Source: Candidatus Omnitrophota bacterium (GTDB taxonomy: Bacteria; Omnitrophota; Omnitrophia; Omnitrophales; Aquincolibacteriaceae). Taken from it: DNA of 44,045 bases. Location of the stretch: the NCBI GenBank assembly GCA_041585205.1, contig JBFHCO010000001.1:1-44045 (forward strand), in the 5' to 3' direction. A model generated the notes under the pieces. It made no database searches. It saw nothing but the letters and a program-made list of their open reading frames with translations, and was not told where the DNA came from. Below, piece after piece: positions 10,720-40,263 of the stretch; the first letter of the stretch is position 1, and each line of letters opens with the position of its first letter. The position numbers were made by a program, and so were the translations under genes.

Positions 10720-11144
10720 GACGCGCCTCGCTCGCCCGCTTTCGGACTGCCATCGGATTTGCGCTCCATCACAATCCCTTCCATTTCAAACGACCGAACA
10801 TTGCCGTTTTCCTGAATTTTGAAAACGATATGAACCGAGTCCCCAACCCCCAAATGACGAAATGCCGATTCGCCGGAATTCACCAGGAGAACCGGCCTCG
10901 AGCATCCGTGAGACATGCCATTTCCGTTTGTCTCTCCCTGCGTTCCGGAATGGCTCAAAAAGGAATGAATATCATCCGCCTTGTAGCGCCAATGCTTGCC
11001 AACCTTGACACCCTTGATGCGGCCGCGCTTGCTTAAACCGTAAAGCGTGGATAAAGGAATTTTCAGATAGAGGCACACTTCCCTTGCCGTTAATACAGAC
11101 TGACTATTCATCTCGGGCATGTCGATCATTCGCCGTTTCTCCAA
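10716..11144 (-). CDS. Excisionase-family (MerR-superfamily, HTH_17-like) DNA-binding protein with a small C-terminal beta-rich domain
   Basis: LTAREVCLYLKIPLSTLYGLSKRGRIKGVKVGKHWRYKADDIHSFL fits the excisionase-type HTH. The TGA at 10716-10718 overlaps the ATG at 10717-10719 of the 3,178-aa ORF. The track start is a TTG at 11142-11144. An ATG at 11127-11129 with GGAG 9 nt upstream is the more likely start. Confidence 0.75.
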   Translation of the reverse strand: MEKRRMIDMPEMNSQSVLTAREVCLYLKIPLSTLYGLSKRGRIKGVKVGKHWRYKADDIHSFLSHSGTQGETNGNGMSHGCSRPVLLVNSGESAFRHLGVGDSVHIVFKIQENGNVRSFEMEGIVMERKSDGSPKAGERGAS

Positions 11145-11358
11145 TAATTGCTGTTATCGCTAAGCAGAACGCAAACTGATTGCTTTAGCTTGCCAAAGCA
11201 GCTTAATTTTCTCTCTAGTTACTACTTTTATAATTCTTTTAAATACAATATAAGTATCGCATCTGTGCGGGTGGGGTACAAATGCTGGGAGGTAATACCG
11301 AAGAAATGCTATATTTTGCTAGCTATTGATCCTTTGAAAATAGCATCAGGAAAGGGCT

Positions 11359-12930: not shown

Positions 12931-12955
12931 CAATAATCACCTTAAGCTAAATAAT

Positions 12956-12984: not shown

Positions 12985-13031
12985 TAATTAGACGAGCCGA
13001 TCAAGGAGGCTATTCGAATCAAAAAGAAACG

Positions 13032-13105
13032 CGCCCGGGACGGGACTTGAACCCGCAACACCCAGATCGACAATCTGGTACTCTAACCAATTGAGCTACC
13101 CGGGC
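13032..13105 (-). tRNA. tRNA-Asp (anticodon GTC), no encoded CCA
   Basis: The reverse complement folds as a cloverleaf. Acceptor stem GCCCGGG/CCCGGGC, D arm GCTC-AATTGGTTA-GAGT, anticodon arm CCAGA-TTGTCGA-TCTGG (GTC at positions 34-36). Variable loop GTGTT, T arm GCGGG-TTCAAGT-CCCGT, discriminator G. Confidence 0.9.
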
Positions 13106-13199: not shown

Positions 13200-13319
13200 C
13201 ACTCGCACTCTTGTGCGAGTGCGGCTCGCACCTAATCGCCATGATTAGGTACGTCATCGCGACAGCCTTTGACGGCTGTCTGCGATGGCGGCGGGAGCTT
13301 GAGGCTCCCGTCCGGGCCG
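13200..13319 (+). repeat. Multi-hairpin intergenic element, copy 1 (possible structured RNA; strand call tentative)
   Basis: Positions 13230-13319 align without gaps to 40619-40708, with about 76 of 90 positions identical by eye. Hairpins: cactcgcac/gtgcgagtg (13200-13221), the overlapping alternative gtgcgag/ctcgcac (13213-13231), cctaatc/gattagg, cgtcatcgc/gcgatggcg enclosing gacagcc/ggctgtc, and ggcgggagc/gctcccgtc. It lies between the giant-gene terminator and the tRNA promoter. Confidence 0.8.
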
Positions 13320-13320
13320 A

Positions 13321-13353
13321 CAAAAAAAGCCCCCCGGATTAAATCCGGGGGGC
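13321..13353 (-). terminator. Rho-independent terminator of the 8,957-aa ORF
   Basis: On the minus strand: GCCCCCCGGA-TTTAA-TCCGGGGGGC (a perfect 10-bp GC-rich stem, 13329-13353) followed by TTTTTTT (13322-13328). It starts 36 nt after the TAA stop. Confidence 0.85.
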
Positions 13354-13389: not shown

Positions 13390-16300
13390 TTACGCCGCCC
13401 GAGCGGTTTCGCGTTTGCCCGCGAATTGTGCCACGATATTGGACAGAATCGCGGAAACTGTTATTTCCTGGCTGCCCGGCAGGGTAAGATCTCTGTCGGT
13501 TGCGACCACGATGCGGCCTTCGGCCAATTTCACGGCACCGATCAAGACACTTGTGACAAGTTCCGGTGCCGCAAGCCGCGCCGTTTCATCCACGCGTACT
13601 TGCAAGGTGTCATTGAGGGTGAGCTTGCGCGCCGCGGCAAGCTGTTCAATGAAGCCTGTCAACGTCCAAACCGCACGGATGTCGAGCTCATCGGCCACAA
13701 GACGCTTGACCGCCAATTCAGCCGCAAAGTCATTTCGGACTTGAGCCAGCACGTCTTCAGCGCCCGCCATAGCCGGATCGATGAAGAGCACGAGCTGGGT
13801 TTCACCTGTCAATTGTCGCAGGGCCTGTTCGATAAACGCCCGGTCATAAGTCTCGACCGACACTTCAAGAACATAAGCACCCGCCACATCAATATGACCC
13901 GGAACCAAATCCACCACGAATGGTACCAAGTCGTTTGTTAATTGAATAATTTCATTTTCAAGATTCATTCCAAGCTCCAATGCACGCTGATTCAAAAAGG
14001 CGATTTCCTGTTTCAATTGCTGCATCGCCGCAGCCGCTTCGGAAAGCGCGACCACTTCGACAAACTCCGTTTCACGGCGTAACTCGGCGCGTTGCACATT
14101 CGGCATGGCATCCATGATGGCCTTGCGGCGCTTTTCGCTGATTTCGCCGCTGGTGACAAGCACGGATAAGGCATCCAAAAGCTGTAAGCGGGCTTCGGTG
14201 GCAACGCGCTTAAACTCGGATCCCTCGGGCTCCGCATCGATGCGTTTGTCCATGGCTTCAAAGACCTGTTCGACCTGAGCCTGAGAAGCGCTCGGAGCGC
14301 CCAGTTTTTCGAATGTTCGAACGGCGCCCTTGAAGATATCGGGATCCGTCTCCTGGTTTAAAACGGCGCGCAGGGTTTCCACTTCATGACCGCTGTAAAT
14401 GCCGTGCTGACGAATGACATCCATGGCTTCGGTTTTCATCGCTTTTACGGTTTCAGGATCCCGCTCATTAAAAAGCAGCCAATGCGTGTAAATCTGCGCC
14501 AGCATTTCACCCGGTACTTTCAACTGTTTTGTCAATCCTTCGCGAATTGTTTGACGGACTGACGCGCTCGTATCGACATCTGCCGGATTGGTAATTTTCG
14601 TATCATTATTGAAACCCAAAGACTCGGTCAGGAGCTGAACAATGCGCGTCTTCACATCCCTTTCGGCTTTGACGCCGGTGCGGACCAGCGCATTGACGGC
14701 ATCCACACGAACGCCTTCCTCGCCATGTTTCAAGCCCTTCTGATAAATATCAGTTAAATCGTTATTGTTCACTTCAACCGTCATCGACCGTAATGCACGA
14801 ATGGCTTTACGGCGGACAATGCCTTCATTATCCGTCACAGCATCTGTTAATGCCGCAATCGCTTTCCGGCCCCCCAATTGGGTTAGGGCCTCGATCGCAG
14901 TCACACGCTCTTCCAAGACGGCTGCTTGCGTTTCCTGATCCGCTCCCTGCGGACCCCGGTCCTGCAAGCGCGGAATAATTACATCCGCCACGCGCCGGTC
15001 ACCGACGCGGCCCAAGGCACGAACGGCGGCCACGCGAATTTCAGGATCCGCATCTCCCACTTTGACGCTCAGCGCCTGAATGGATCGCTTATCCGCCAAT
15101 TCACCGAGAGAAGCCAACGCCTCGAGTTGAACGGGCTTTTCGGGGCTTTGCAGAGCCATCACATCAAATTGCACCAAATCTTTTTTAGAGGCGTTGAGCT
15201 TTTTCAACGCAACGCGCGCAGCGAGCCGGACCTTCTCATTCGCATCCTCGCCCACAACTTGACCTAATGCTTCGATGGAGTTGCGCGTTCCTATTTGACC
15301 CAAATTTTCGGCGGCCGCCAATCTGACTTCAGGTTCCGCATCCTCGGTCAACGATTCCAAAAGAGTGCTTTCAACCTGCGCGGCCGGAAATTGACCCAAA
15401 ATACCCACTGCAAGGACACGCTCTTCCGCATCCGCGGTTCTCAACTTTTCCGTCAAAATGCTGACTGCCTCCGGTTTGCGAAGCGCGCCAAGCGCCTGAA
15501 TCGCATCACGACGCACGCCCTGACTCGGATCATTCTGCAGTCGGTCCAGCACTACTTGATAAACAGCATCGCGCAGGGACTCGTCTTTAACACGCGCTAC
15601 CGCATCCGCGATCGATTCGACGATTTGGCGTCTCATCAACGCGGTCTTGTCGGGATCCGGCTGAGTTCCCGGCGCCGGCTTCACGCGGTTTAAAACATCC
15701 GTGTAGATTTCTACCAATTCTTTTTTGTTCCGATACCCTGCTTCCTTCAGGCCTTCGGCGACCGCAAACGCCACATCGGTCACATCATTTTTCTTTGCGG
15801 CAATAGCGCGCATAATTTTATTACGAAGTTCACGCGTTGCCGCGGTCGGCTTTTCGACTCCATCCAATGCCACCGCCAATCTGGCCAAGGCCGTAACCGC
15901 AGCTGCGCGCACTTGCACGCTTGAATCATCCAATCTCTCGATCAAGGCTTCCGCCACGGAAGGTTTGGGATGTTCCAAAACACCCAGTGTTTCGGCCGCG
16001 TCCCGGCGCACCCCCGCATTCGTATTTTCAAGCGCGCGTACATACACCGCGGCCAATTCATCCGGATCAAGATCCAGTTCTCTTAAAACACCCCGCACGG
16101 CATTACGCACGTCGTGATTCGGATCCACGGTGCGGGACTTCAGCGCATTTTGGATCGACGGGGCAATCAGATCAGGATCCGTCTCAGCAATATCCATCAG
16201 GCCTTCCGCCCCTTCCCGGCGTATGGCGGCATTATCGTCGTTATTCAATGATTTCACATAGACATCGGATGCCAAGCGCGCCTTATCAATATCAAGATTG

Positions 16301-19300
16301 CGAAGCGCTTCGGTCGCCGCCGTGCGTACATTCGCGTTCGCGTCCGAGCTGGCAACTTGCATCAATTCGTTCACCACACTGTCCGAGGCGACGCCGAGAT
16401 TACCGAGCGCGGTTGCGGAATCCACGCGGATGCCCGCATCGTCTTTATTTAACGCTTCAAGGTAATGATTCGCCAGCTCTTCTTTAGGAACATTGAAGCG
16501 GGTTACGACTTTGCCTTCATCATCCATTTCCCATAGCGCCTTGGCCGCCGCATTGCGGACTTTTTTAACGGGATCTAATTTCAAAATGGCAAGCAAGGCC
16601 GTCGCGATCTCTTCCCGCCGGTTCAGAGGAATTTTCTTGGTTTTTTCGAGTTCACCCAAGGCCGCAGCCGCTTCCTGGCGGATATTGCCATCCTGGCTTT
16701 CCAAATTATTGAAATAGACCTGTGTCAATACAGCGGCGTCTGTAACGATTTTGGCAAGGGCTTTACCTGCCGCACGGCGTACACGCGCTTCAGGATCCGA
16801 TTGCACGCTCAGAATCAACGGACTTTCGGCAATTTGATTGCGCAGCCGGCCTAAAATCGAGGCGGCCGCACGACGCACTTCACGCGATGCCGTCCAGGCT
16901 TCCCGCTTTGCATCCTCGCGGCTACGCGTCGCAAGTAATTGATTTAAATATTCCGTTACAGGTTTGGATACGGCATCTGACGCCAACTCACGATTGGATT
17001 GGCGTTCAAGTTCCGCCCAATTGCGATCCTGATTCCAACCCTGCTCGCCCGTGACCAGGCGTTCATTTAGGGTATGGACGAACGCGGCAGTCCTGCGGGA
17101 CTGATCAGTAACCGGGGCATTGGCCGGTAAGATGAGGGTCAGGGATTCCGCCAACTTTTCGCGCATTCTTTCATAAAGCGCGACCAAGGCCTTCTCCTTG
17201 GTTCCGTAAGCTTGCAATAACACATTCTGTTCGGTAGTCAGCGTATGTTTCTCGAAAAGTCCGGAAGGAGTCATTACGGTCACAACCACGCCGTTCCAAG
17301 CGACGCGCTGCGCTTCTTCCAGCCGCTTATCACCTTCGAAATCTTCGGAGACCGAACTGATCATACGCAACCGCTCTTCTCCCGGAAAACTCGGATGCTC
17401 CCAATAATCCACCGCATTCCATCTCTGCTCTGCGATGGCCACATGCACACCTTCGACGGCAGTGCGGACTTGATCATCGGCAAGCCAGCGGCCCACGATA
17501 TCATTCACGATTTGATCGGCTTGTTCCGGTGCGACAGAGGGTTCTTCCGTAGGGGCAGGCGTTACCGGCTCCTCATCCGCGGGCGGAGCGGGCGGAGCAA
17601 CATCAGAAGGCGGTGCGGCCGGAGGCGTCGGCGGCGCAATCAGGGCCAAAATGCCGGGTAACCGGTTGATGAGCTTTCTATAAAATTGCAGAAGCGCTTC
17701 ACGTTCATTATTGCGATAATAAGCCAAGACAAATGCTCTTTCATCCGCGGTCAGCACTTTGGCTAAGATCCGTTCCATCAAGGGTGGTGCGTTAATGTAA
17801 GGAAGCAGCGCTTCTTCATAGGCAAATTGCTTAGCCTCTTCTTCGTTTAATCCGGACTGCGCCATTGCAACGTTCGCTTCATCCGGCCTGTTGGTGGTCA
17901 TCCATTGCCAATGGGACACGGGGTCTTTCACATCCGCCGAGACCCAAGACTTTAAGTCTTGCACGCGATAAACATATTTAAAATCTTCGGTTTGCAGCAC
18001 GCGGTCGGCAATCTTATTGATGCGGTCATCATCCTGCGTTATAACCGGAATGACATACGGAACAGAAGGCGGAGGCGTCGCCGTCACGCCCGTTACGTCG
18101 GTGGTTTGACCCGGAATTTTGGTATCCGCCACGCGGGCCATCATTTTGGTCAAGGATTCCTCTTGCTTTGGTTCCTCAGCAACCGGCTCAGGTTCTTGCG
18201 CAGGAGCTTGAGCCGTTGTGGGTTTCGGTTCATAAGGTTCTTCCAGAATTTGCATATCCACGTCACCCTGCTCTTCGGAAGGCGCCTCTTCAGAACCCGC
18301 AGGCCGAACTTCTTCATCGCGTGGTATTTGACCTTCAACCGGCACGGCCACTTGAGAAACCGGCCGGGTCACGGGTTTATCCTGCTGATCAAGAGCCATG
18401 ATTACCTCCGTGGTAGAAGGACCTTGCTTTTCTTCCACAGGCGTGGGCGCGGGAGCTTCTTCAGCCGCAGGCGCCTCAGTCGGCGCAGGCTCTTCGGCTT
18501 TGTCATCCAGCCAATCCGGCAGCCCTGAATCCGTTGCTTGAGATTCTTCTATCGGTTGAGCAGCGGGCGCAGCTTCTTCGACCGGAGCCGGTGTAACAGG
18601 TTGCTCTGCCGGCTGTTCGGCGGCAGGAGCGGGCTCTGCGGGTTTTTCTTCTTTCATCCAATCCGGAAAATCGTCATCTGATACGCGTGCGCCTTCGGAC
18701 GACGGAGCGGTTTTCGGAAACATTTCATCCAGTGAAACGTCCCCCGCCTCCTTCGGAAGTTCTTCCTGTTTTTCAATTTTATCGAGGGTTCTTAACAATG
18801 CGGAGATTTCGTCATACACGGCTTGACCGATGGCGATTACATCACGTCCTTGAAAACCGTGCGTACGTAAATGTTCCCAGCTCGCCTTGGAAATGATTTC
18901 CGGATCCACATTGACGGTATTGGTAATGAAGCCGAAAATGGCTGTCCCCTCGACAAATTTCTGGCCTTGGGTAATGATAAAATCATGCAATTGTTCACTG
19001 TACTTTTGAACTGCCCGCTGAGCACCGTCTTTGATGATATCAAGGCTTATTTGAGTCACGGCCGGTGCACTCGGCGCCTGCGGGGCCGGAGATGGCGGTG
19101 CAAGCGGGAACTCACGCATCGCACGCGTTGCCGGACGCTGGCTCACAAAACGGACAGCGGCTCCGTAAACGGCTTCCGCTAATTTTAATGTTGCCTCAAC
19201 GCCGTATTTATCCTGCGTATAATACTCACTCAAGAGAATATTAAACTCCCTCAGCGCTTCTCTTTGCGCTCTGACACGCTCCTGTCCTTGCCGCGACAAA

Positions 19301-22300
19301 AATCCCTTAGCCGCCTCCTCTTCCGCGCGGCGCGCTTTAGCTTGAATATTGGAGATAATCTCCAGCATATGCATATGAAGAGACGCATTATCACCCTGAG
19401 CCGTCCGCCATTGCGCGCCCTTGTTGATGAAATCCTCGAGCGGATCGATCAGCTGCTCCTTAGCCGCGGCGTCTTTCACATCAAAGAGTTTTCTCACGAA
19501 ACCATCCAACAGCTCTTGCTGATGGCCGATTTCAATGCTTTCAAAAGCTTTCGTGATCGATTCAAACGTCCGCTCGGGCTGGGATTGAACGTACCGGACA
19601 ACCGCCTGATACAATTCGCGATTGAGCTTCACGGCGCCTTCTCTGCCCTTATAATTATCGTCTCTCAGGAAAACTGAAAATTCCTTATCGCGGATGCCAG
19701 CGCCGGAGCGGTCCTTGCGGATTTGCTCCATCAACTCTCTTATTTCCTCACTGTCCTCGTAGCGAATTTGATTTTTCACGAAATCAGCCAGCCGGGCTCC
19801 ATACCGCTCTCCTTTGACCAGCCGCTCGGCTATAACATTACGCAAATCAACCGCTGCACGCAATTCGGAGCGTTTTTCAATGCGGCCCGCATCCTGCAAT
19901 TTATGATAAAGCGCTTTTTCCGGTTCGCTTTCCCCGCCGATTTCGACAAAAATGGCCGCGGCATCCGCCGCGTTCATCGCATAAGTCATGATCGGATCCA
20001 TGGCCAACCGCTTAATGGCGGGCCAGGCATGCTGATCAAGCGCATACGCTTGTGCTTTGGCGATATCGCCGGGATAACGGGACTGAGCAAGCATGCGCGC
20101 CGGTTCGTCCAGAACTGTGTGCCAGTAAGTATCTATGGATCCGTGATCAGCAATGACGTCCTGTATAACCCACTCGCGGACCTTGTTGATGCGGTCCAAA
20201 TATTCCTGTGGTATTTCTGAAGCAACGCGATCCAAAATGGGAGTTGCGCTTGGCTCTTCTTCCGCCACCGGTTCTTCGACCGGCGCCTCTTCAGCCGGAA
20301 CTGGAGCCGGTGTCGCAGGCGCTGTTGAGCGCGCTGCTATCGCATCCGCCGCTATCTGATGAATGCGACGCTGGCCGAACCACAAGAGCACATACTGCTC
20401 AATCATCAAGTTGGCGTAATTGTTGATTTTCTTCGCATCGGCCTCGGGATGCTCATCCAGCCATTTTTTGAAAACAGCTTCATACTCCCTATCGCCGAAA
20501 ACCTTCGGAAATAGTGTGCTTAAATAGGAACCTCTGATCCAAGTCCAGACACCGATCATATAACCGATAATACCCAGATAAATCGCGCCGTAAATAATCG
20601 TGTTAAAGAATACCGAGAAATACCACGGTAAACGCAGGATTTCAGAAAACATCAACTGTGTCGGCAAGAGAGCGCTCGCGCCGCCGTCACCGGTCGGAAT
20701 ATAAGCGCCGATCATCGGCATACCGGAAAGTATGGGCGGACCCAGCGTAAAAAATGCCGCAATCGCAATAATCGCAACGCCGTGCAGCGCGGCTGTCCAG
20801 CGCGTGCCCATAGCAGCACCGGGATAAGTCGGAGGCGTACCGGGAGTCTTTTGAACGTTTGTCATGCGGCCTATAAAATAAGCGATGCCCGGACCCATAA
20901 TAAATGACGAAATAAGAATCGGGCCTGCGCGCATCACCAAATCAGCCGGAATCACACCCGCAAACAGCGGCCCCAAAAATCCCGCGGCAATTAAAATCAC
21001 CACCGTCGCAATGGAGCCAAAATACACCAATTTCGTTTCAGGTACTTGTTCCTTCTTCATTTTTTCAAATGTTTCTTTATTGATGGTCATGGAAGCGAGC
21101 GGAAACAGGCCGAATAATATAGCCGCAATAATTCCGATCCAGGCATAAGCTGTCAACCCCAGGAACGTAGCCTGCGCGACGAAGGCAAGCGGCGCGAATC
21201 CCGGCAAGGCCAAAAGGACGATGCCCAATCCGATATTAAAGACGAGGCGCATTTTCATCAGATAGGCAGGCAGCGGTAAGGTCCGTTGACTCTCCTCAAA
21301 AGAAGGCCATGTCCCCTCGCCCTTTTTGCCGCTGAGACGCTCTCTCATTTCCTTGTAGACACGAATTGTTGCCATCATCAGTTCATATTGTTTGATGATG
21401 ATTTTTTGAAGATAGACACCGGTCGAGGCCACAAATTCAAACGCGGCCGACGGAATATCAAGGGCGATAAACCATCCGATTTGCTTTGCGGGATATTTCA
21501 CCCAACGGTCGAAAAAGCCGCTGAACTCCCGGGGCGACCCGTCATCACGAAGGGGTGGATTCACAACGGCATAAAGCCGGTTGAGCAATCGGCCGGTAAA
21601 CTTGGTATGCACAAGCGTGATCATGATGAAAAGGAACAGGATTTCTCCCAGAAACGGGAAGGCCACTTCCAACGTTCCGGGATGAATCATCGCATAGAAA
21701 GTGATGATCAGCTGAACCAACCAAATCGGTTCCGAAAAGAGTCCGCGTGTGACCTGATTTTCCGCGTATTTTCCGCGCAACGGAATTTTCGGAAGCCGGT
21801 CATATTTTAATTTTTCAATCGGGGCCCTTAATTTTCTTTTATCATTATCTGTCAGCGCAGTATTTTGCTCGATCATTTGCAATATGGCGTCAGGGGCCTC
21901 CATCCCGGCCATGACATTGGTCACATATCCCGTATCGGACGGATGGAAAATCGTCGCCGGCAGACCGGGTACGGCTAAACGCTGCAACGCAGCGCTCAGA
22001 TTGTTTAATTCAGCGTTCACGCGTGCGTTCAGATCCGTAACATTCTCCGCGCCCGCCACAATATTGCTTATCTTTTCTTGATACCATTTTTCAATCGCTG
22101 CAAGAATTTGATTATTCACATCCGAGCCTGCGATGACGCCTGTCGCGCGAATTTGCTCGAGCAGATAATAAACGATTGCGGCCTTGATTTTACCCTGCCC
22201 CACCGCATGATAGAGTTTGTGGAAAATGAACGCGAGCACACCCGAGAGAGCGCCCACACTGAGAAAGAGAGTCGCGTAGGGCGCAAGAAAAGCCGTGATG

Positions 22301-25300
22301 AGAAAAGCAGCTGAGATGACCCCGAATGTTAAGCGGAATGCACCTAAATTCCTCAAGGTGCGGTTGATGGGCGTGTGTAAGACGACAAAATTCCGGAAAT
22401 CAAAGGTCGGCAGCCATTTTGTTTCTTCCCGGCCCAATTCATCCAGAAAGTTTGCCGGCGTGGATTCGAAGATGACGGCATCCGGCACATAAGCGACACG
22501 ACCGAAAATGTTCCGGAAGGCGTCTTCACTTTGCACATAAGTGGGGTCCAGCGCAAACATCAGAGCATACTGGTTATCCTTGGCTTCCGATTCAAAATAC
22601 AGCCTGGGTCTTACGAAATATTTACCTGCGCTGCGAACACCGCCTTCGATCTTTGCGGTACCGAGCTGAGACATGATACCCAAGCCCTTATTCGGAACCT
22701 CTTTCAAGGCATAGGCGTATAAACTGACCGCTTCGTTATAATAGGCAATACGAGCCTGCCACACCGAAAAACTGTCATCCATGGTGTTGATCATACGGAG
22801 AATGGTGTTTGCGGCGGTGTAATTGTCCTGGTCCAGGATGACACCGTTTTGAATGAGTGGTCTATCCCGGCCGTCGCGCGGACCTTCATTGCGCAGTCGC
22901 AATAAATTCTGGGCCCCTGCCGCCGTGGTCATGATACCCACACGTCGATTATCCGAAGGATCCACTCCGATTCTGACCACACCGCTCGGATCCTGCAAAT
23001 ATGCCGGATGACCCGGGGTCGGCATCGGATCTTCTGACCGAAGACCATAGATCCAGCCTTCAGTGACGGCGTCTTCGCCTTCCGATTGCATTTCAAGCCA
23101 ACGTTCCCACTTGAGGACGTTATGGGGCTTACCAATCCCTTTCATCATCATCACAATAAAACGGTCTTTCACATGCTGCGGAATCGCAGGATTTCCATCA
23201 TTGTCTATGTCGTTATTTTCAAAAACCATTCTGCGTAAAATATCCTGATAACGCGCCAAAGTCGCCGCATTATTACCTTCGGCTTGCAAAATCATGACCG
23301 CTACAAAGTTGTTTGAATTGACCGACTTTAACAGATCAATGTTCTTTTGGATGACTTCAATCAACTGATTGTCATCCGTAGGACGCAAGGGGCTGATCAC
23401 TTCAAAGCTCTTTTCGTCAGTAATATGTTCGGGCAATATCGCTGCATTCAATGTCGGACTGACGCCCGGAATGAACCGCGGCAGCAGCAAATTCACAAAA
23501 AACTTGCCGATGTTGATTTCAAGCACGACATGAATCAAATAAACGAAAGTAATCGCGTACAGCGCCAGCACAACCGGATCCACAAAACTGAATCCGAATA
23601 TGAGAATGGCCGTCGCGGTAATAAATAAATTAAGGAATGTCATCACAACATGATAAGGAAAGCTTCTGTACCATATTTGCCTGAATTCACGGCTTTGCTC
23701 CACCGCGTTCGGATCCGGCGCGCCTTCCAATACCGGTTTGGCCCACGGACGCGTTGCGGCCAACCGGATAAACTTAAGAAATCCGACCGCAATGGTAAGG
23801 ACGGAGGCCGCGATCAACGCAAGCGTTAAATTACCGACGGGGGTTCCGCTGAAATAACGCTGACCGAAGATTTCAACACCGCGTCCCAAGAACAGGTTGT
23901 AACGGGCCTTCTCGATTTCAGACCAATGCTTTTGCCAGACGGATTCCGGTACTTCCTCACGCAGACGGTCTTCAAGGACGTTTTTATACATTGAATTCAT
24001 GGGTCGCTGGAACCGTTCCATTTTCTCATCCGAATAATCCCAGGTTTTCGTCAATCCAATGCGCTTGGTGGGATCCACCATCAATGTATCAGTGATAACC
24101 AGAAGCTGCTTGCCGGTAAGCCACAGGTTCAAATCATAGGTGCCGCGGGGCGCTTTGGTGCGGTCGGAAGTCACGGATTTCGCGGCGTCTTTTTCGGCAG
24201 AATCCACGATGAGTTCGCGCAATCTGAGGGTTTGATCGGCCAAATTTTTGAAAGCAATCGGCGGAATCTGCTTTTCCACCATCACTGCCGTGATATCATC
24301 GGCGGCCGTATCCGGAAATTCGACGCGTTCGACACCCAACTCCTTCAGTCTGCGGTTCAATGTATTCAATTCGGAGAGTACAACGGGTTTCACGTCTTTT
24401 GCCGTGATCTCAATTTTGGCCGGAATTTCAGCCAGACCGACCTGATACCATCCGTCCACCGAATAAAGGATGCGGTCCATCATAGGTCCATCCACCGCAA
24501 TGTCTTCCTTCTTAATTTTTTCACGAACCGATATGGAGGTATCAATCCACCGGGTTATTTTTTCAGGAGACACTTCACTCATGAAGGCGTTGTTGCCTAG
24601 CAGTATCAGCTTCTTTTCATCCGGCGTACGGTTAATGCGGCCTAATTCAACCTTAAGATGCGCGCTGAGTTTTAATATCTCTTCCAACCGGCCGAGTTCG
24701 AGGTCCGCGTACTTTTCACGGGTTAAATTCTGAACCTTGGCGTCATAATCCGACAGTTCCTTACGGATGGATTCCGGAATATTGGTATCCTTCAATCGCG
24801 GTTCGAGATATCCGCGGATGCGCGTTTCTGTTTCTTTCAATATTTCGCTTTGGAGACCGTCACGGGAATCCGTAAAATCGACCCTTTCGGCGATTTGGGC
24901 GGCAATGCCTCCGATAAATTCCCATTCTTCCTTGGTAAAGAGCTCGCGGATATTGTCCTTATAGGATTCATAAAGATCCGGCTTCATGATGCGCGCATAT
25001 AGATCGGCGACGCGATGCGGCACCACTTCATATTTATAGATAACGCCATCAGCCGTATAGCCGTCACGTGCCATGAATTTCACAAGCAGCGCCGCTGAGG
25101 CCGAGCTGATTTCAAGGCCATAAACCTCCTTGGCTTTGGCTTGGACGGTCAAGATTTCGTTCAAGAGACCTTTACGGTCAGCAACTCTGGCCTGTGTTTC
25201 AAGGGCTTGGGCATTTCGTTCCAGACGAATTTGTTCCAGCACCTTTTTCGCTTCCAGTTCTTCCAATATTCGGGGAAGCGTATTAAAGATTTTGTCATTG

Positions 25301-28300: not shown

Positions 28301-31300
28301 CGGATAAACTCCGCGTCCGTACCGGCGGGATAAACCTGCGTCCACTGTTTGTAATCAATGCGGTCGGCGGCTTCCCTGGCATCAGCGGAGAAAACACCGT
28401 CTTGCTTCAAGAACTCCAGATCCTCACGCGAAACATTCAGCACACCCGGTTCGAGCATTTCCTGAATTTGTATTTTTAAGAAAATGACATGTTTTTGAAT
28501 GGCCCGCTTAATATCCGGGTTCACTTCCAAGGTTTTTTCAACGATGTTATCCGCCGTGGCATGGGGATCATTCAGCATCCCCTCGGGCAAGTGGGCCAGT
28601 AAGCGCATGGCGAAATAATCATAAAACCCAAGCAAGCGCAAATCGACGGCCTTGTCCAACGCCGTTGCCGTATCCAGGCCCATATAGCCTTTTTGCTCGC
28701 TCGTTAAAGTGTTGGAAAGATGCTCATCCCAACGCACACCTAATTGCGCCGTACGGCGGACACTTTCCGGAAGTTTATCAATGAGAGCTTGAATCTGACT
28801 GACCGGCGCATTCGCATCCGCGCGGGCACCGAGATAACCTTGCGCCGTCAATGCTCTCAAGAGCTTAATCCGGACCTCATTTTCGCGCTCCGTCAGCCCG
28901 CGCGCCTGGCCGGATTTGACCAGAATGTCATCCACAAAAACCGCCTGCGTCACGACATCGCCGATTCTTTCCTCTTGGGTGACTTTATCCGTCACTTTGG
29001 TCGGCTGCGTTAAATTGATTCCGTAGATGCCCTTGGCGACTTCGGCGGCATCCGCGCTTAAATTATCATTCAGAACATTTGTTTTGGGCGTATGCACCGG
29101 CGCCTTGATTTCAACGGAATGCTTTTGGGTCAGGGTGCGCTCGACGCGCGTGCGCTGATCCCCCGCCTCCTTGGTAGCGGCATCCAGCGCCGTGCGCATC
29201 TGTTCCATGAAAGCGATTTGCTGTGCGATTCGAGCCCTCTCGGCCACAACTTCCTCGGCTTTCACGGGGACTTCCGGAGCGCGTCTTGCGATTTCACGGC
29301 GCAGGAGCTCTTCACGTTCGCGTGCGGCGACGGTTTGCTGGTCGGCGCGGTAAGGCAGTTTTTCATAGCGGACTTCCCGCAGAATCTGCACGCCGTCCTT
29401 TTCACCGAATTGCTGCAGCGTATGGCTCAAATTGTTGACGGATTTGTTGAAGTCATTGTGGGCCGCAATCAATGAAAGTTCGGCAATATTTTTGCGGTCC
29501 AAGGCCGTAAACAAATCGGAGCTTTCAATTTTTTTATCAAGATAAAGCCGCAGCATATCCTGATAGCGGTCCTGCGCCATCACATAATCGCCCAGTCTTT
29601 GATAGAGATTTCCTTGCGCGCGCAGATAAGCATAGTATTCGTTCAAGGCCTGGAAACGGATCGAATCGACAAGACTCGGTACCTGGCTGGCTGCGAGTTT
29701 CTGCTTCATTTTTTCGATTTCAATGCGGGCATCGCCTTCGGCGTTCAACAAGTGCAGTCGCAGCTCAATTACCCCGTAAAGGAAAGGCTTCACGTCATCA
29801 ATGGTTCTGTCGCCGAGCGCACGCTTTAAATCATCCATATCCCGGCTGCTGCCGAATAACTTTGATATCCCGGCGGCAAGCGCCACGCGGGATGAAAGCC
29901 AGCGTTCCCAGGTCGACTGAATTTCCCTTAATTTGCCGATGTCCATATTCAGCAGAAAGGCTTTCAGCTGCGGGTCATTTTCGGCAAGCCGGACCAAAGC
30001 CTCGGGTGTGGTCGGGGCCTGATCCACGATCGCCTGCACCACATTCTCTTCCGCCGGAACGACCACTTCCTTTGCCTGCGGAATATTCGTGAGGGTTTTA
30101 AAATTCGTCAGCGCATTCTGATAAGCCCTTTCTTCGGTCGTCGCTTGATACTGCTTTCTTTCGTGATAATCCCGGGCCTTGTTCTGCGTGGTTTCATCGG
30201 CTTCCGCACGCTGTATCATTTCATACAGGGCTTCGAGTTCATCCGCCTGCAGCTGAATCGCATTGGCGAAACCGCGCTGACGCGTCACGTCATAAATCAT
30301 GTTGTGCGTCACGCGTTTTGTTTCATTATTCAGATAGGCTTCTGCATGTTCGAGCTGTCTGGTTTCAAGATCAGCAATGTTATGCAGCTGGCTATACAGG
30401 GCTTCCAATGGATGATAAGCAAATTCAATACCGAAAGAACCGGTAAAGAATCTTTCCGTGCGCCCTTGAATGCCCGGGATCGGCGGATTCGGAGCCGGTT
30501 GAATGATGGGCAATATCGACGGAATATCGATATCCTGAGGAATCAAGCTTGCCTGCGCGCTGATCGTAAGATGGCGCAACCAACGGGTTTTGTGCCTTAA
30601 TTCCGCGACCGCTGCCGCCGTTTGCGTGTTGAGATAAGCGACGCGATTCACCATCGTATCTTTGACGCCTTCCACATTTTCCGGTTTAGCCAGATCCAAC
30701 GCACCGTCCGTGCCGCCCATTTGCTCAAAGCGCCTTTGCTGCTCGTTTGTGTCCGCGGGCGTGATTTGAATTCCCTCGCGGGAGGCAAGGTTTAATTCGG
30801 TGAGCGCATGATTCAGGGATTGAATCTGATAATTATCTTCACGCTGAAGCGTATCGAGCTCCTGCGATAATTTCCAAAGTTCCGCCAGATCGCGGTCGGA
30901 GGTGCCGGCCGCTTTCAATTTATCCGCGAATATTCTGAGTCTGTTTTGCGACTCATCATGAAGACGGCGGCTTTCCGCCAACTGATCGCGTGTGTTAAGA
31001 TTCGTTCTTTCAAGCTGATCCTGATAGCCCCGGTTTCCGTTGCGGGCGGCTTGAAGCGCCACATCCGCCTTGCGAATGCCGTACTCCGCGACCACGCGGT
31101 CGACCGCCAAATCGGACATTTTGCCGAAATGGGCCAATTCGACGGAGGTGAATACGCCGGGTCCGGTGCGAAGCAATAACGGAACCAGTTCCGCCCGAAT
31201 GCCCTGATGCTCATTGGCGATGTCGTAAACGGCCCAGGCGATTAAGAAGTCTTCTTTCGGAATGCGGTCCACTGCGCTCGGGTCAAAATCCTTCACGACG

Positions 31301-34300
31301 TCGCGAAAGGCTTTGACCAACTCCTCGCGGCTGACATCCTTCCCAAGGGCGGGTAATTTGCCGTATTCAAAAGCGACTTGATCATCCACTTTTAAACCTA
31401 AAGAATACTTATAAAGTTTGGCCGCCCGCTCACGTTCTTGATTCAGGGATTCAATGGCTTTATTGATGGAGGCCAGTTCCGTTTCAGCCCATGTAACACT
31501 GGCGTCTATCCGCTCTCTTTGAGCCGGAGCTTTTTCGCGGCGTGCCGTATATTGCTCGATTACCCTTTCATAAGTTGCTTTCTGAGATTCAAACCCCTGA
31601 ATACGCGAATTGATCTGGCGCAAGATGATATGCAGACGCGCCACATTTTTAGCAAATTCAATTTCATTAACTTTTTGCACTTCGCCGGACTTGAGCATGG
31701 AGTGATAAAGCAATTCCACTTCCCCGTGATATTGCTTGCCGATCAAAAATTCAAAATTGACGCCCACACCGCGGTCCGGCAACCCGCGCGCAAATCCCTG
31801 CGGACCCGCTACGTCATCCGGGGCAATTCTGAAGGCTTCCGCGGTGACTTTGACCAGTTTCGAATCACGGAATGATAAGTAATCCGCCGCATTGATGGTT
31901 CCATCCTCTTTCAGCCGCCTGCTGAGATCCTCGACAAGCTGCTGTTCGCGCTGCTGATACATACGGATTTTCTCAAGGTATTCGAGGCGTTCCGACCAGT
32001 TCAACTTGTCTTTTTTCGATTCAAATTCCTTTTCAAGCTCGATGCGCGCTTCACGGACATCTTCCACCCTGTCCTTCCATATACTCGGCATGGCCTTGTT
32101 CATGACGCGGTCCAGTTCGGCATACTTTTCATCTGCATTCTTATAAAGATCCTGAACGTGATCTTTCAGACCCGGTACGTATTTGCCGTCCTGCCAATAA
32201 CCGTTCTTTAAAAGCGGAATTTGGTACTGAAGTTGCGCGCTTTCTTCTCTTAAGGCTTCGATTTCCCTTTGCCTGGATGCAATACGGGCTTCTTTGGATT
32301 TGGTCATAATGAACAGAAAATAAGCGTCACCGACCGTGTCAATTTCATTTTTGAGCGTTTCGATCCGTTCCGCGATTTCAATGATCCGGTCTTCCTTCTC
32401 GCGAATGGTGACCGTCGCTTCTTCGACGCGGTCGAGAATTTCCCATTCCTTATTCTGCAAGTCTTTGAGTTTTTCGGTGACATCGCCTTGATCACGGATC
32501 AGCCACAAATGCCAAAAACCCAAAATGCCCAGGAAGGCGTGGTCATCAAGCTTGAGCATCAGTTTGATTAAGACTTCTTTGACTTCCCTTTGATGGACGC
32601 GCTCAATGGCATTGCGCCAATCCATGCCGTGTTTTTTCAGATCTTCCTTCCAGCTCTCGCTGTTGAATTCCTTGTGGTCCCGGACCGGCTGTTCAAATAA
32701 ATTGACATAAAAATCCTCGTTAAACCGGCCGGCGCGCACGTCGTCCTTATATTGTTTGACGCCCTTGTCCACCGTTTGCGTCAACTCGCGCAATTCAATG
32801 TTCACCCTCTCCACATTGTTGACGGCATCACGCAAACTGAGCGACGCCCGTTCGAAACGTACCTGGGCCGCATGCAGCATTTCCGAGCTTTCACCCTGCT
32901 TGAAACGCTCCACGTACCGGTCGAGCATTCCGCGGGCTTTGGAATACTCTTCCTGAGCAAGTCTTAAATTTTCCTGAGCTTCTTTGACACGCCCGCCTTC
33001 AAAAACTCCGGGCTCGATTTCCCTGCCGCGCAGGTCATCCAACTTCTGCTGAATGCGGTCGATATCACCGAAATAAATGAAAAGATTGCGATAAGCGCGG
33101 TATTGATAAGCCAGAGGCGGGAGGGGTTCCTGTCCTCTCTCAATGGCAATCGGCAGCCACGCGCTCCAGCCGGCCGATGAAATCGGATCCACGAAGAACG
33201 GGAACATGGCCCGCAACCTGAAGATCACCGACCAGGACTCGCGCGCATTGGTGAGAACGCTGTCCATCTGGCGCAGCTCGCGGTTGAGTTCCGCCAGTCG
33301 GATATCCACGATTTGTTCGCCTTCTTCAGCCGGTTCAATGCCGAATTCACTCAAAATTTCTTGCGTGGCCTTTTGAAGTTCCGCTGTTTTTTTGGCGGGA
33401 TCATTGTAAAAGTCCGGATTGGAGTAACGAGGGTCCAGCGTAACTGTGTTGGCTGAGACGCCCATCAAATGCGCAATGCGGTTTTTAATGTCGGATTCCC
33501 ATTCCCGTGCCACCCTTAAACGTTCCTGCAAAGCGCGCTCAAGACGGTTGGCATTCCAGCCGGCATAAGCGTCAAAGCCCTTGCTGTAGCGTTTTTTAAG
33601 TTCCTCGAGCGTTCCTTTTTCATTCAATTCCGTCAAAATCGCTTCGATATCCTGCACTTCGCCGACGGCGCGCGTGTAGTCATTGACGAGTTTGGCGGCT
33701 TCGGTCACGGCGCCGATTACTTCTTTCTGGGACATTTTGAATTTGGCGAGCATTTGCTTATCGGCGAGCGCCGGCCGGATTTCATCGGTGGCGTCATATA
33801 AATAGAAAGACAGTTCCGCTCCTACACCCAAACGCACGCCATCCGAAACCCACGTCGAGGGAATATTCAGAAAATCAGGAATGCTGGCTCTGGCCTCAGC
33901 GATCAAATCCAGTTTTAGAGAACGTTCCGCCTTGAGCGCATCGGCATTGCGTTCGGTAAGCAGCATGGAATTTTCGCGCGGAATGGCATGAGCCAGAACC
34001 GCATATTTGGCGATTTGATCAAAGGTCAGACCTTCGGCCCCGGGATGAATCGGCAGATCACGCACGGTGTCAATGCGCGGCCCGTCAAGCTGGAAAAGAT
34101 CCGCGGTCGGGTCGAAACGCACATCCACGACGCTTTTAAAGGCCCGGCCCAGAATTTCATGATAGCGGTAAAGGTCCGCAATTTCATCCTTGGTGCCTTC
34201 CGGCTGCGGGTAATCATAAATGACATAGACATCGACAATGGTTTTATCGAGCGCGGCGCGGAATTCGGCTTCCGTGGCGCGATAGATCTTGCCTCCCGTC

Positions 34301-37300
34301 AAGCCGGAAAGCGTCTCGACGAAATAATCGAGGAATTTATTCTTCAGGTCCTTGCGTTCATCGAGCTTGCGGCCCACTTCCCCCTGACGGAAAAGAACAT
34401 CCGACAAATCCTTGGCCAGATGCTCGCGCAGCAAATTGCTGTTGAAGCGGGATTCGATAATTTTCGTAAAGGCATCGGCCAATTGATCATGGAATTCATA
34501 AAGTTTCGCCACGTCGTCGCGGGAATAATCCGGCTGCGGATATGAATACAGGACATATTTGTCTTTAACGGTTTTCTCAAGCGCGGCTTCAAAATGTTCG
34601 CGCTCGGCTTCCCAAATCCGGTTGTCCGTCGCGGCTTCGAGCTGCTCGATAAAATAGTCGACAAATCTTTGTTTTAAATCGACGCGGCCGCGCAGCAAGC
34701 GCCCGACAGCGCCTTCAGGAATCAAGGCATCGTCCAATTCTTCGGGTAAATTGGAGCTGAATTCTTTGTAAAGGATTTCGCGGTATCTTTGAATTTCGGC
34801 TTCACGCACCCGTTGCTGGCGTTCGAGCTCCCTCAGATCCTTTTGACGCTGTTCAATCGCGCCTTCCAACGCTTTATCAAGGATACGCGTCATCCAGTTT
34901 GCGAACCCGCCGACCGGGCCGCTTTTGGCGGCTTCTTTCGCATCCTCCACGACTTCCACCGGGGGTTTCGCATTGCGAATGGCGTCGCTCAAGGCACGCA
35001 CGCGGTCGTTTAATTCGGTGATGCGTTTTTCATCCGCAGGCACCCTGCCCGCTTCTTCATTGAGCTGGGCGGTGGCCGCACGGCGCATTTCGCGCAACTT
35101 TTCTAGCGCGGCTTCAAAATCCTTCTTGGTTTTGGCGTCCTGACTTTGACGAATGACCTCTTCCGCGCTTTGCAGAGCCAACCGTTCTCTTATCCGGGCG
35201 GCTGCCGCTTCCATTTCCGCTAAGAGTTTATCGACGTCCGCTTCCGGCACTTCTTGAGGAGCAAGCACTTCCGGCTTGGGCTCTAATTCTTCAAGCAGCT
35301 TTTCTTCTTCGCGCGCTACTTCGACAGGCTCTTCCGTCACGGGTACCGCTTCAGGAGTGACGGCAGGCGCTTTCGCCTCTTCCTTTTTGGTTGCCTTGCC
35401 GTAAATTTCAAACAGCTGCAGGCTGTAAGCCATTTCATTCAGTAGATTGGCTCTTTGTTTGTCATCCGCCGGGCGATTGGCTTTGACTTGCGCGAGTTCA
35501 TTTTCAAAGGAACCCGCGATCCGTTCATCGATAACTTTCCGCTCGCGCATATCCGTCAGCACATTTCCGAATTGCTGAAGGGTTTGAATTTCAGCCGAGC
35601 GCCAGCCCTGCAGGGCCAAATCGCCGGCCTCGGTGTGAACGCCCATCCAGCCCAAAACAGAGGCCGTGGCTTGCATGGTGGTATCGGAAATACCGATACC
35701 GGAATAGGATTCCGCTTTGTTCAGAAGATTATGGCCCCAGTTGATGGCGTTTAATTCGACGAATTCAACCGGGACAGAGATGAATTTAACGAGGGGTTGG
35801 TCGCTGCCTGTCACAAGATTATAAACGGGTGTGGCGGTGTATTTGTCAATCCATTGCGCGGCGCCGTAATGCAGCGTAGGGTCGGGCGTTTCACCCTCCG
35901 GGACATGATGACCCGCCAACCCGGCGATTTCAGCGCTCACAATTACCAAACCGCCCCAGGATTTAATGAAAGCGAACCAAAAAGTGCTCAAAGCCAATGC
36001 GGCAAAGAATCCAGAAATCGGGGCAACAACGTAGCGGTAGAAATAGCCGGGCGCTTTGACTTCAGGCGCGACAGCCGGTGGCGCGCGTGGCGCTTCAGTC
36101 ACGACTTCGGCCGGAATGGGCCGCTTTTCGGCTTCGTCCACCAACCGATTTAACAGTGCTTTTTCGGCGCTTGTCGCAAAACGGACATGCGGCAATAAGG
36201 AACGCAGTTCCAAAACCACATTGCGTTTTTGATCTTCCGGCAAATTGGTTGAAGCGGAAATATCGGTGATTACTTTACGCACGGTCGCGAAATCCAAATT
36301 GGGTAGCTTCTTTAATTGATTGATTTGTTCGATGACGGCTCTATCAATGCGCGCGTTGGACAACTTAGCGGAAAAGTTCGGAATCGTGAGTAAAAATGCT
36401 AAAATAGCTGAGTTGGTAAGAGAACCAAGGGTCAAGGCATTCGCCAAAGCACCTACCACGATTCCTATAATAGGAATTCCCGCTACCCCACTCACAATAG
36501 CCGGGCTCAAAAGGCCGATACCCGCCACGCTGGCAGGCATCAACACCGTGACAAGGCCCATACCGATCGCGCTGAATATAGCCAACTTCCAGCGGCGGTA
36601 AATAAATTGAGATGTTGAAGCAACGAAGGGTTGAATGAGCCATTTGTTAAGTCCGCGGCCGATGCGGCTTGGAACTGAATTGCCATAGCGCATCTGTGCC
36701 GCGCGGCCGACTTTTAAATCCTTGGCATTCAGCATGGCGCCGGCCAACACGTCTAAAGCAATTTCACGCGGCAGCGGCGCAATGCGGCTGCGGAACCAAT
36801 GAAAGCTGATTTTGCGGCGGTAAAAACTGAAAAAGAAGGAATCCAAAAGATGCGGACCGAGCATTAGGATTTTTCCGATCAACTTCCCGATAGATAAACG
36901 CGGAGAGTTGAAAAAAGACTTGATGACATAGCCGGTCTTGGCCAGCAAGGTGTTGCCCGGTATGGGTTCTTTGTGCGGCTGCGCATCCCGGCGCACATAA
37001 TGAAGTTCGGCCGCCTTTTCAAGCTGTTCATAAACATAGCGCCATTGTTCAAGGGATGCATCGCGCGTTAATCCGGTTACCGCTGCAAGCTTATCCAAAT
37101 CGCCGCTGTCAAATCCGTAAGCTTCTAGAATACGCTGAATAATCGCTTCTTTTTCGGCGTCGATACGAATCGCTTTGACCTTTTTAAGATCCGGCAGCGC
37201 CTCCCCCGCATGCTTTGAGACAATTTCTTGAATGACATCCTGAAGGCCGGGTGTCACCGCAGGCGCCGGAGCGACAGCCGGTTCCGCGGGCTTGACTTCT

Positions 37301-40263: not shown

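Follow-up and report, generated by a model that had tools for sequence, protein, structure and literature searches.

The stretch of DNA analyzed here, referred to as the window, comprises 44,045 nt from a Candidatus Omnitrophota bacterium (assembly GCA_041585205.1, contig JBFHCO010000001.1). On its minus strand, at 13390..40263, lies a giant coding sequence of 26,874 nt, which begins with ATG and contains 8,957 codons plus a stop codon. We confirmed that it is a single genuine gene of this bacterium. The first-pass annotation had described this open reading frame (ORF) without giving its strand, and had missed the paralogues of its N-terminal module (N-module) located downstream, the total lack of cysteine, a recurrent RSE[VL]R motif and a C-terminus of the [A/S]-A type. 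It seemed to us an even bet that the encoded protein is an envelope-spanning machine centered on a glycan synthase, made as one modular polypeptide and possibly self-processed. Its topology, the synthesis and export of a glycan, the link to the outer membrane and the proteolytic processing are what we infer from the features described below.

The translation is free of stops up to its terminal one, and the letter N occurs nowhere in the window. Comparatively, the two alternative frames of the same strand have 53-102 stops per 1,500 codons. As this corresponds to a stop density of about 0.053 per codon, the calculated probability of an 8,957-codon frame staying open by chance is about e^-484. 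The three codon-position GC contents (GC1/GC2/GC3) were flat across all six 1,500-codon tiles. These results agree with the earlier claim that the frame could not arise by chance. In an alignment, residue 1 of the giant protein pairs with residue 1 of its orthologues. An intrinsic terminator with an 11-bp stem (9 G-C pairs) followed by T7 is located at 13329..13353 on the minus strand, 37 nt past the stop codon, and fits its previous description as a textbook terminator. The internal duplications had been called short and diverged. When tiles of the protein were compared with each other by BLAST, only residues 1891-1943 and 2001-2053 (45% identity) were found to be duplicated, in addition to the HEAT repeats, and no long nucleotide repeats were found within the gene.

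We then surveyed the relatives of this gene. The first 760 amino acids (aa) had 22 protein matches, and all of the named ones were from Omnitrophota. An alignment of the closest N-modules retrieved 75 loci from species-representative genomes, at 30-59% identity; an exact 8-mer genome scan from a single protein found nothing. All 75 loci came from Omnitrophota or from metagenome-assembled genomes (MAGs) of uncultured bacteria, so the suggested comparison with giant ORFs of Omnitrophota was an apt one. More than 30 loci had an N-module-headed ORF longer than 3,900 aa that extends beyond the fetched DNA. L056 runs collinear with the giant over aa 1-4005 at 28-40% identity. L078 lies on a metagenome contig of 259 kb and has an uninterrupted ORF of at least 4,925 aa that lacks cysteine. 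This ORF matches aa 4268-6634 collinearly, at 37-47% identity; its end is ...QQAA, the same type of terminus as that of the giant, and it aligns poorly to the C-terminal domain. Three full-length proteins, P0041 (5,233 aa), P0047 (7,079 aa) and P0050 (7,990 aa), have in common the N-module and the core at aa 4500-6555, and the last ~190 residues of the giant are also found in P0041 and P0047. The bodies of L056, L076, L021, L027 and L036 align with that of the giant at 21-28%. Therefore, the body is fast-evolving and was not replaced. For the same reason, we rejected the idea that the body of L001 is unrelated to the giant.

L001 is the closest long-contig relative. It is annotated as two proteins of 1,297 and 7,903 aa, and at L001 13837-13894 the frame switches within a stretch homologous to aa 1364-1368 of the giant, which makes it one gene of ~9,200 aa with a frameshift. 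A sequencing error, a programmed shift or decay could account for the frameshift. Fragmentation is heavier in L002. Such cases would be expected if frames of this kind were artifacts, i.e. chimeric contigs, genes fused by error or decaying pseudogenes. However, the frame studied here has zero stops in 8,957 codons against a stop density of ~5% elsewhere, its GC content is uniform, and it lacks internal repeats that would be prone to misjoining. Independent assemblies are collinear with it over aa 1-4005 and 4268-6634, and P0041 and P0047 have the head, the core and the C-terminal domain. In addition, more than 30 related ORFs extend past 3,900 aa, and both conservation and cysteine avoidance run along the full length. 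An assembly or annotation artifact is thus extremely improbable.

Pfam, run on the halves of the giant protein and on 1,000-aa tiles at E <= 0.01, revealed only an OEP domain and HEAT-type repeats; NCBIfam gave nothing beyond partial HEAT-type matches, and a PDB sequence search with aa 1-7800 had no relevant match. No adhesion, dockerin, lytic or toxin domains appeared in the Pfam scans. Helical, charged or linker-like sequence devoid of any enzyme signature makes up ~85% of the protein.

The protein has a membrane core (aa 5481-6575; 20539..23823, minus), with ~13 transmembrane (TM) helices. According to structure prediction and Foldseek, its fold resembles those of processive glycosyltransferase family 2 (GT2) synthases such as BcsA of cellulose synthesis, hyaluronan synthase (HAS), cyclic beta-1,2-glucan synthase (Cgs) and plant CesA. 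Word-indexed searches with this region found nothing. An exhaustive HMMER search with aa 5450-6600 against 1.84 billion representatives found 42 relatives, all of them within very large proteins. An AlphaFold2 model built from these 42 relatives reached a pTM of 0.72, with a pLDDT of 85-95 in the soluble glycosyltransferase (GT) domain. The top 20 PDB matches of this model in Foldseek were all membrane processive GT2 synthases (probability 0.97-1.00, E 4e-5 to 5e-3). They included BcsA (4p00, 4.2e-5), HAS (7sp8, 4.4e-5), Cgs (8rf0, 5e-5 over 1,176 columns) and CesA. Thus, the TM plus glycosyltransferase-like block that had been proposed was recovered, and by structure only. As in BcsA, HAS, Cgs and CesA, a GT-A domain is set between TM helices, and Cgs, like the giant, is a very large multi-domain fusion.

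The fingerprint of processive GT2 enzymes consists of DD, DxD, (T)ED and QxxRW, plus KAG, QxPH/Q and FxVTxK (PMC6821405). In the GT-A-like catalytic domain (aa 5610-5965; 22369..23436, minus), we found D5811-Q-D5813-N, Q-S-E-D5913 and R5945-x3-K-W5950-x3-FD. At least 80% of relatives keep the first D and the N of the DxD motif (D5811-Q-D5813-N5814), and most of them have D-x-D-N. S-E-D5913, at the position of the catalytic base (T)ED, is also conserved in at least 80%. The QxxRW position reads R-E-E-T-K-W5950, where K-W and the downstream F-D are conserved and the Q is not. The giant shares with the known synthases the DxD and the catalytic Asp of (T/S)ED, and its Trp of the QxxRW type lies at a similar spacing: 37 residues separate the Asp from the Trp, versus 40 in RsBcsA (PMC6821405). 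As a side observation, L001 and L002, from different genomes, share, upstream of their N-module giants (L001 1-9700 and L002 1-9700), a syntenic series of genes for SPOR, PilZ, YajQ, PilZ and a cNMP-binding patatin. Several of these are of the cyclic-di-GMP or cNMP effector type, which might be of relevance to a cellulose-synthase-like core. The window shows no such gene neighborhood.

Hydropathy analysis revealed two TM clusters, as had been annotated. The first has four TM helices (aa 1229-1430) and the second is the core (~13 TM, aa 5481-6567), giving ~17 in total. The positive-inside rule placed all K/R-rich loops on one side, so that the predicted topology is self-consistent. By this topology, aa 30-1228 and 1431-5480 would be outside the cytoplasm, and aa 5582-5974, with the GT domain, and the last 2,390 residues would be inside; it agrees with the earlier view that parts of the protein lie on both sides of the membrane. 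The second of these predicted extracytoplasmic segments is the loop from TM4 to TM5 (aa 1431-5480, 4,050 aa; 23824..35973, minus). It contains the charged, helical, coiled-coil-like stretch of the earlier description, which we located at aa 1680-3230 (30574..35226, minus) and which includes the duplication mentioned above. A conserved helical region with 37% identity to L078 precedes the synthase core (aa 4268-5480; 23824..27462, minus).

At the midpoint of this predicted loop, Pfam found a full OEP repeat of the TolC type (PF02321; aa 3422-3615; 29419..30000, minus). Its score of 44.5 bits exceeds the cut-off of 22, and the match spans positions 4-185 of the 187 in the profile. A second, partial stretch (aa 2426-2495; 32779..32988, minus) is sub-threshold at 21.4 bits against the same cut-off. 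OEP was also above threshold in L056 (41.3 bits) and L078 (25.1 bits), and a profile of the OEP region additionally detected L021, L027, L036 and P0057. In the giant, P0057 and L078, OEP and the GT2-like core are on one polypeptide. The giant thus shares with the TolC/OEP family one full-length repeat that scores above the gathering threshold and is kept in orthologues. However, the canonical OEP protein stands alone, is ~450 aa long and has its two repeats in tandem, and the repeat of the giant, unlike TolC, is predicted to lie within a loop whose two ends are both anchored in the inner membrane. Therefore, the annotated TolC-like segment stood as one full repeat, and not as a complete two-repeat protomer.

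The N-terminus has the layout of a signal peptide, as had been claimed: an R/K-containing n-region, a hydrophobic core and AWA followed by DG, a pattern that is conserved in orthologues. This Sec-type signal peptide or anchor covers aa 1-32 (40168..40263, minus) and reads MYTWQTGRLKIWLRTTAFVVAAIFTTTTVAWA before DG, with the putative cleavage site between the two. The N-module follows at aa 65-580 (38524..40071, minus) as an alpha/beta core with a helical insertion of ~300 aa. In its model, with a pLDDT of ~90 over aa 70-540, beta strands and alpha helices are predicted to alternate in the core and the conserved residues to sit at strand ends. The conserved set comprises D91-x-H93, E121, R470 and GGFH498. 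Among 101-105 N-modules, H93, E121, H498 and R470 are invariant, and D91 is present in 98 of 101. The His-Glu spacing is 28 residues in 96 of 101, the same as in Bcr135 and RRSP.

This arrangement resembles the TIKI superfamily, which includes EreC, Bcr135 and HopBA1 and has a catalytic set of 2His/2Glu: acid-x-His, a Glu 28 residues on and a distal His (PMC6254334). Several members are site-specific endopeptidases (PMC6254334). The N-module has the 2His/2-acid motif, with Asp instead of Glu as its first acid. It resembles the superfamily (Tiki, TraB/PrgY, erythromycin esterases, ChaN, Bcr135, HopBA1 and RRSP) in its predicted extracytoplasmic location and its large appended domains, and it may share their parallel-sheet alpha/beta core. 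In contrast to TIKI proteins, its core is split by the 300-aa helical insertion, it has an additional invariant Arg-Asp pair (R470-D471), and neither its sequence nor its fold scores significantly. We consider the N-module a candidate TIKI-superfamily hydrolase or endopeptidase, judged from its sequence motif.

Three further signatures recur across the family. First, cysteine is avoided. There is none among the 8,957 residues of the giant and none in its 3,178-aa neighbor. N-module ORFs contain 0.069% cysteine (150,029 aa), compared with 0.81% in ordinary ORFs of the same loci, a depletion of ~12-fold. A general proteome trait was ruled out as its source, as the value of 0.81% is that of the flanking ORFs.

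Second, a short motif with the consensus R-[S>A]-E-[V>L>I>T]-R is repeated. The giant has three copies: RAELR just past the N-module (aa 747-751; 38011..38025, minus), RSELR at aa 6798-6802 (19858..19872, minus) and RAELR at aa 8725, where the C-terminal domain opens. The expected number was 0.15; in the 3,178-aa neighbor, five copies were found and 0.04 expected. Across the family, we counted 144 copies in 322,887 aa versus 4.5 +/- 2.0 after shuffling (32-fold enrichment), and 0.446 versus 0.028 per 1,000 aa relative to control ORFs (16-fold), in tallies that count homologous, inherited positions repeatedly. Several family proteins hold 5-7 copies whose contexts are unrelated. The sequence on either side of the motif is unconserved, with a slight excess of A/P/S. 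The synonymous codons vary, which ruled out an origin at the nucleotide level. In 48 of 73 N-module ORFs, a motif follows GGFH at a distance of no more than 450 aa, and these distances cluster at 74-95 aa. The C-terminal domain starts with the motif in the giant, P0041, P0047 and P0038, and 11 of 28 large proteins have a copy 201-233 aa before their end. The stand-alone N-module protein of 524 aa has no motif.

Third, large ORFs with a genuine stop have a C-terminus of the [A/S]-A type in 16 of 21 cases, compared with 5 of 347 among ordinary ORFs. In the window, the three large genes end in ...ARAA, ...ERAA and ...LVAA. The C-termini of RTX toxins (HlyA ...TASA, LktA ...FARAA) resemble this end, which we take as a lead only.

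Put together, these features suggest the following mechanism. A Sec signal peptide would export the N-module, with its TIKI-type active site of 2His and 2 acids. Next would come the four-helix membrane anchor, followed by the extracytoplasmic charged helical loop of ~4,050 residues with OEP midway. In the core, the cytoplasmic GT-A domain would polymerize sugar from a nucleotide-sugar and thread the chain through the membrane channel of the core itself, as BcsA and HAS do. The helical loop and the OEP element might join the synthase to the outer membrane as a conduit or a tether. The tail would provide linkers and helical modules, a platform of HEAT repeats and a domain of ~230 aa ending in Ala-Ala. 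The R-S/A-E-V/L-R motifs mark the borders of modules, with one copy behind the head, one within the tail and one ahead of the C-terminal domain, and are the best candidate cut sites for the TIKI-like head, or for the stand-alone paralogue acting in trans.

In the Bcs, Alg and Pga systems, an inner-membrane GT2 synthase works with a periplasmic scaffold of helical repeats and an outer-membrane channel. The parts list is shared with the giant as predicted: a synthase, a helical periplasmic part, an outer-membrane element and a candidate periplasmic hydrolase. However, all of these parts are on one polypeptide in the giant, a TolC-type OEP repeat takes the place of a 16-18-stranded porin, and the HEAT array is predicted to be cytoplasmic instead of periplasmic.

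Several observations weigh against a glycan-synthase machine of this kind. The GT2-like core has no sequence matches in Pfam, NCBIfam or PDB. The TM-scores of its Foldseek matches are low (0.16-0.37), since a multi-domain model was aligned globally. Where the first, UDP-binding DD would be expected from the order of motifs, a conserved L-Q-A is found, and a regular expression for the FxVTxK gating loop had no match in aa 5450-6650. With its fingerprint incomplete, the GT domain could be inactive or of different chemistry. For the N-module, the TIKI fold match is statistically insignificant: the best E in Foldseek was 0.44, and EreC, Bcr135 and HopBA1 were in the top 30 at E >= 0.7. Profile searches detected ChaN (PF04187) in just one of 23 members (E = 0.12), and the family profile had no relevant match in PDB. 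OEP was undetected in the full-length, GT2-core-bearing P0041, P0047, P0050 and P0038, so its link with the GT2-like core is not universal. The OEP-region profile matched no TolC chain among PDB sequences. An adjacent second OEP repeat was ruled out (hhalign of aa 3235-3421 versus 3422-3640, probability 0.3), and the only other OEP-like stretch is the sub-threshold one ~1,000 aa upstream. In the synthase-dependent systems known so far, the outlet is a beta-barrel porin and not a TolC-type duct.

The GT2-like core also differs from known synthases in lacking PilZ and sequence-level membership, and in being set in a 9-kaa polypeptide after a predicted extracytoplasmic loop of 4,000 aa. As D-x-D-N, S-E-D and K-W-x3-F-D are kept, while DD, the Q and the gating loop are missing, the model points to a divergent clade with the synthase fold and key catalytic positions, and not to a canonical member. 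One may ask whether the giant is purely a structural scaffold or tether of the envelope, in which the GT2-like and TIKI-like domains are dead relics, the protein acts as a strut or organizer across the periplasm, and the HEAT and coiled-coil parts are docking surfaces for other proteins. The ~85% of the protein without an enzyme signature and the absence of DD and the gating loop would fit this idea, and HEAT arrays are scaffolds. However, among relatives of 25-45% identity, the putative catalytic residues (S-E-D and K-W; H93, E121 and H498 at 100%) are the most conserved positions of both domains, which is the pattern of active enzymes. We thus think a pure scaffold quite improbable.

The evidence on processing is also two-sided. 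The repeated counting of inherited positions weakens the motif tallies. By the predicted topology, motif copy 1 is periplasmic and copies 2 and 3 are cytoplasmic, so that a single compartment-bound protease could not reach all of them. P0038 has six motifs and no N-module in cis, and we accordingly rejected the possibility that motif-rich proteins require an N-module in cis. Motifs on both predicted sides of the membrane, and in P0038, would be easier to explain if a chaperone, a targeting factor or a modifying enzyme docked at or recognized RSE[VL]R, or if the motif were a structural helix-start element, and the giant worked uncut. Against such a role, the motif is placed like a boundary, after the head and before a C-terminal domain of fixed size. 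It is associated with the protease-type head and absent from the stand-alone head, and its flanks resemble linkers in being unconserved and slightly A/P/S-rich. We regard a motif without cleavage as possible and rather doubtful. With similar reserve, we propose only tentatively that the signatures form a "biogenesis code". In it, a Sec signal and a TIKI-type head, motif cut sites, a 200-235-aa domain ending in [A/S]-A and cysteine avoidance would make giant genes polyproteins, whose parts form a synthase and export machine.

The N-module also heads other genes, and three N-module genes stand in tandem in the window: the giant gene, the stand-alone paralogue of 524 aa with its own signal peptide (11359..12933, minus), and a 3,178-aa paralogue (1183..10719, minus). 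In the latter, a signal peptide and an N-module are combined with PEP-utilizers and PPDK_N domains at aa 2296-2774; it has five motifs of the RSE[VL]R type and the terminus ...ERAA. In L078, the giant ORF is likewise followed by an N-module ORF (L078 16199-20989). In P0021, the N-module is fused to AceK. The PPDK-like domains of the paralogue and the AceK kinase/phosphatase of P0021 are ATP-dependent and normally cytoplasmic, and here they stand behind a signal peptide and an N-module without TM helices. The same localization puzzle of cytoplasmic-type domains has been raised for giant proteins in the literature.

These neighbors bear on another explanation, in which the giant is a polyprotein delivered or secreted as an effector in an episymbiotic or predatory lifestyle. 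The signal peptide, the N-module and the [A/S]-A-tagged C-terminal domain would then be an export and processing system, and the bodies would be cargo acting on or inside a host cell, namely the GT2-like membrane core in the giant and PPDK-like or AceK domains in paralogues and relatives. A role of this general kind has been proposed for the giant proteins of Omnitrophota. One head is indeed found on very different bodies, including the PPDK_N protein without TM helices and AceK in P0021, and N-module genes are in tandem in the window and in L078. The cysteine depletion of the family (0.069% versus 0.81%) also suits an effector. Such depletion is typical of proteins exported unfolded. The literature ties giant Omnitrophota proteins to predation, and RRSP, a TIKI endopeptidase, is an effector module of the autoprocessing MARTX toxins (PMC6254334). 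With MARTX toxins and viral polyproteins, the giant shares its modular make-up, a putative protease-type module and a short boundary motif. Unlike MARTX, it has no CPD cysteine protease or RTX repeats in Pfam, and it has a Sec-type signal and many TM helices; by this comparison, the resemblance is functional only. An effector role is further opposed by the 17 predicted TM helices with their self-consistent positive-inside topology, which suggest a resident membrane protein, and by the need of a GT domain for cytoplasmic NDP-sugars. No adhesion, dockerin, lytic or toxin domain is present in the giant, and no secretion-system genes were seen in the window. We therefore regard a delivered effector as unlikely.

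The other parts of the giant had mostly been anticipated. A P/A/E/V/K-rich linker (aa 963-1005; 37249..37377, minus) precedes the conserved module of TM cluster 1 (aa 1007-1570; 35554..37245, minus), which has three TM helices within aa 1229-1295 and one at aa 1412-1430. This module belongs to no known family by Pfam, and its profile matched nothing relevant in PDB. After the core, P/A/E linkers alternate with helical modules (aa 6636-7790; 16894..20358, minus), and no relatives of this region were detected. The modules after the linkers, of ~100-190 aa, lie at aa 6680-6760, 7400-7540 and 7590-7780 (window ~16.9-20.2 kb). They looked alike by eye, and BLAST saw no similarity among them. An array of HEAT repeats (HEAT_2, E = 1e-54 in Pfam) occupies aa ~7790-8560 (14584..16896, minus). 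The conserved C-terminal domain (aa 8725-8957, ~230 aa; 13393..14091, minus) starts with RAELR and ends in ...ARAA-COOH; word-indexed searches with it found nothing. Linkers, helical modules, HEAT array and terminal domain were thus all recovered as annotated.

Before the start codon of the giant gene is an AT-rich spacer of 565 nt (40264..40827, minus) with two sigma70-like sites, at 40390-40363 and 40329-40301. A tRNA-Asp gene (GTC; 13031-13105, minus) lies between the terminator and 95-nt repeat on one side and the 524-aa N-module gene on the other, with a sigma70-like site upstream of it at 13154-13126. As a spacer with promoter-like sites precedes the start, and the terminator and the tRNA-Asp gene follow the stop, the giant gene looks monocistronic. 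The upstream gene (40828-44045, minus) is open to the window edge and encodes at least 1,072 aa with two cysteines and no Pfam match. Neither an N-module nor an RSE[VL]R motif is found in its visible part; it carries the C-terminal signature of the family in its ...LVAA end. At ~10720-11360 on the minus strand, between the genes for the 524-aa and 3,178-aa proteins, a small ORF of up to 145 aa contains, by eye, a helix-turn-helix-like stretch of the excisionase/MerR type, ...LTAREVCLYLKIPLSTLYGLSKRGRIKGVK....

The giant gene is flanked on both sides by a 95-nt direct repeat (13226-13320 and 40615-40709; 84% identical). One copy is thus downstream of each of two consecutive genes, with copy 2 in the distal part of the spacer. 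On the gene strand, both copies fold alike, into a very stable multibranch structure of three hairpins with another hairpin beside it (-78 kcal/mol, z = -9.7 for one copy and -63 kcal/mol, z = -7.1 for the other), and their differences are compensatory. The repeat matched no Rfam family at the gathering threshold, and none of the 79 related loci has a copy. Its possible identities include a REP/MITE-like element, a 3'-end stabilizer and a small RNA.

Giant non-repetitive proteins with a signal peptide and TM helices are a hallmark of Omnitrophota (bioRxiv 10.1101/2023.11.21.568195; 10.64898/2026.06.07.730766). ORFs of such a size, which had been called rare, are indeed rare among prokaryotes generally; within this phylum they are common and have been described before. 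With 8,957 aa, the giant is below the thresholds of both published surveys (>30 kAA in West-Roberts et al. 2023; >=10 kAA in Nielsen & Lui 2026). In the >=10-kAA catalogue, 39% of the proteins are "SP+TM", and 94% have a signal peptide and/or TM helices (bioRxiv 10.64898/2026.06.07.730766). Like the giant, the published Omnitrophota proteins combine a signal peptide with multiple TM helices, are non-repetitive and multi-domain, and have HEAT repeats. Their N-terminal region beside the signal peptide has been suspected of proteolytic processing. PPDK_N, among the commonest domains of the archaeovorins, is found here in the neighboring 3,178-aa paralogue. The other archaeovorin domains that we looked for (GT5/GT1, methyltransferase, GH, NUDIX, SecA_DEAD and C39/S8) were not found in the giant by Pfam, and Pfam scans revealed no dockerin or TSP3 repeats. 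The giant differs from the published proteins in its TIKI-like head and in a membrane GT2-like synthase that is invisible to Pfam. Because giant multi-domain proteins with a signal peptide and TM helices are already documented in Omnitrophota, the giant ORF as such is a further example of a known phenomenon. OEP, cysteine depletion, RSE[VL]R and the [A/S]-A terminus are unmentioned in bioRxiv 10.1101/2023.11.21.568195 and 10.64898/2026.06.07.730766, and a literature search returned nothing on a motif RSEVR, RSELR or RAELR. What seems undescribed is the content of the giant, namely the family of TIKI-like heads, the hidden GT2-like core with OEP, the lack of cysteine, the motif and the C-terminal tag.

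According to the main paper on giant Omnitrophota genes, it is unknown whether their products act whole or cut, and the lack of known cleavage points blocks structural analysis. The candidate boundary motif, a candidate protease head in at least 75 species, the C-terminal tag and the no-cysteine rule offer four handles on this question. The published catalogues could be searched for all of them, and existing proteomes could serve as a check. The GT2-type fold found here implies that the "dark" sequence of giant proteins can conceal recognizable machines, and the fusion of a GT2 synthase fold with a TolC-type element is a combination undescribed for polysaccharide export. If the glycan-synthase reading is true, the production of surface glycans would be one role of giant Omnitrophota proteins. 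If the reading of the signatures as a biogenesis code is true, giant genes would be polyproteins, i.e. "operons in one ORF".

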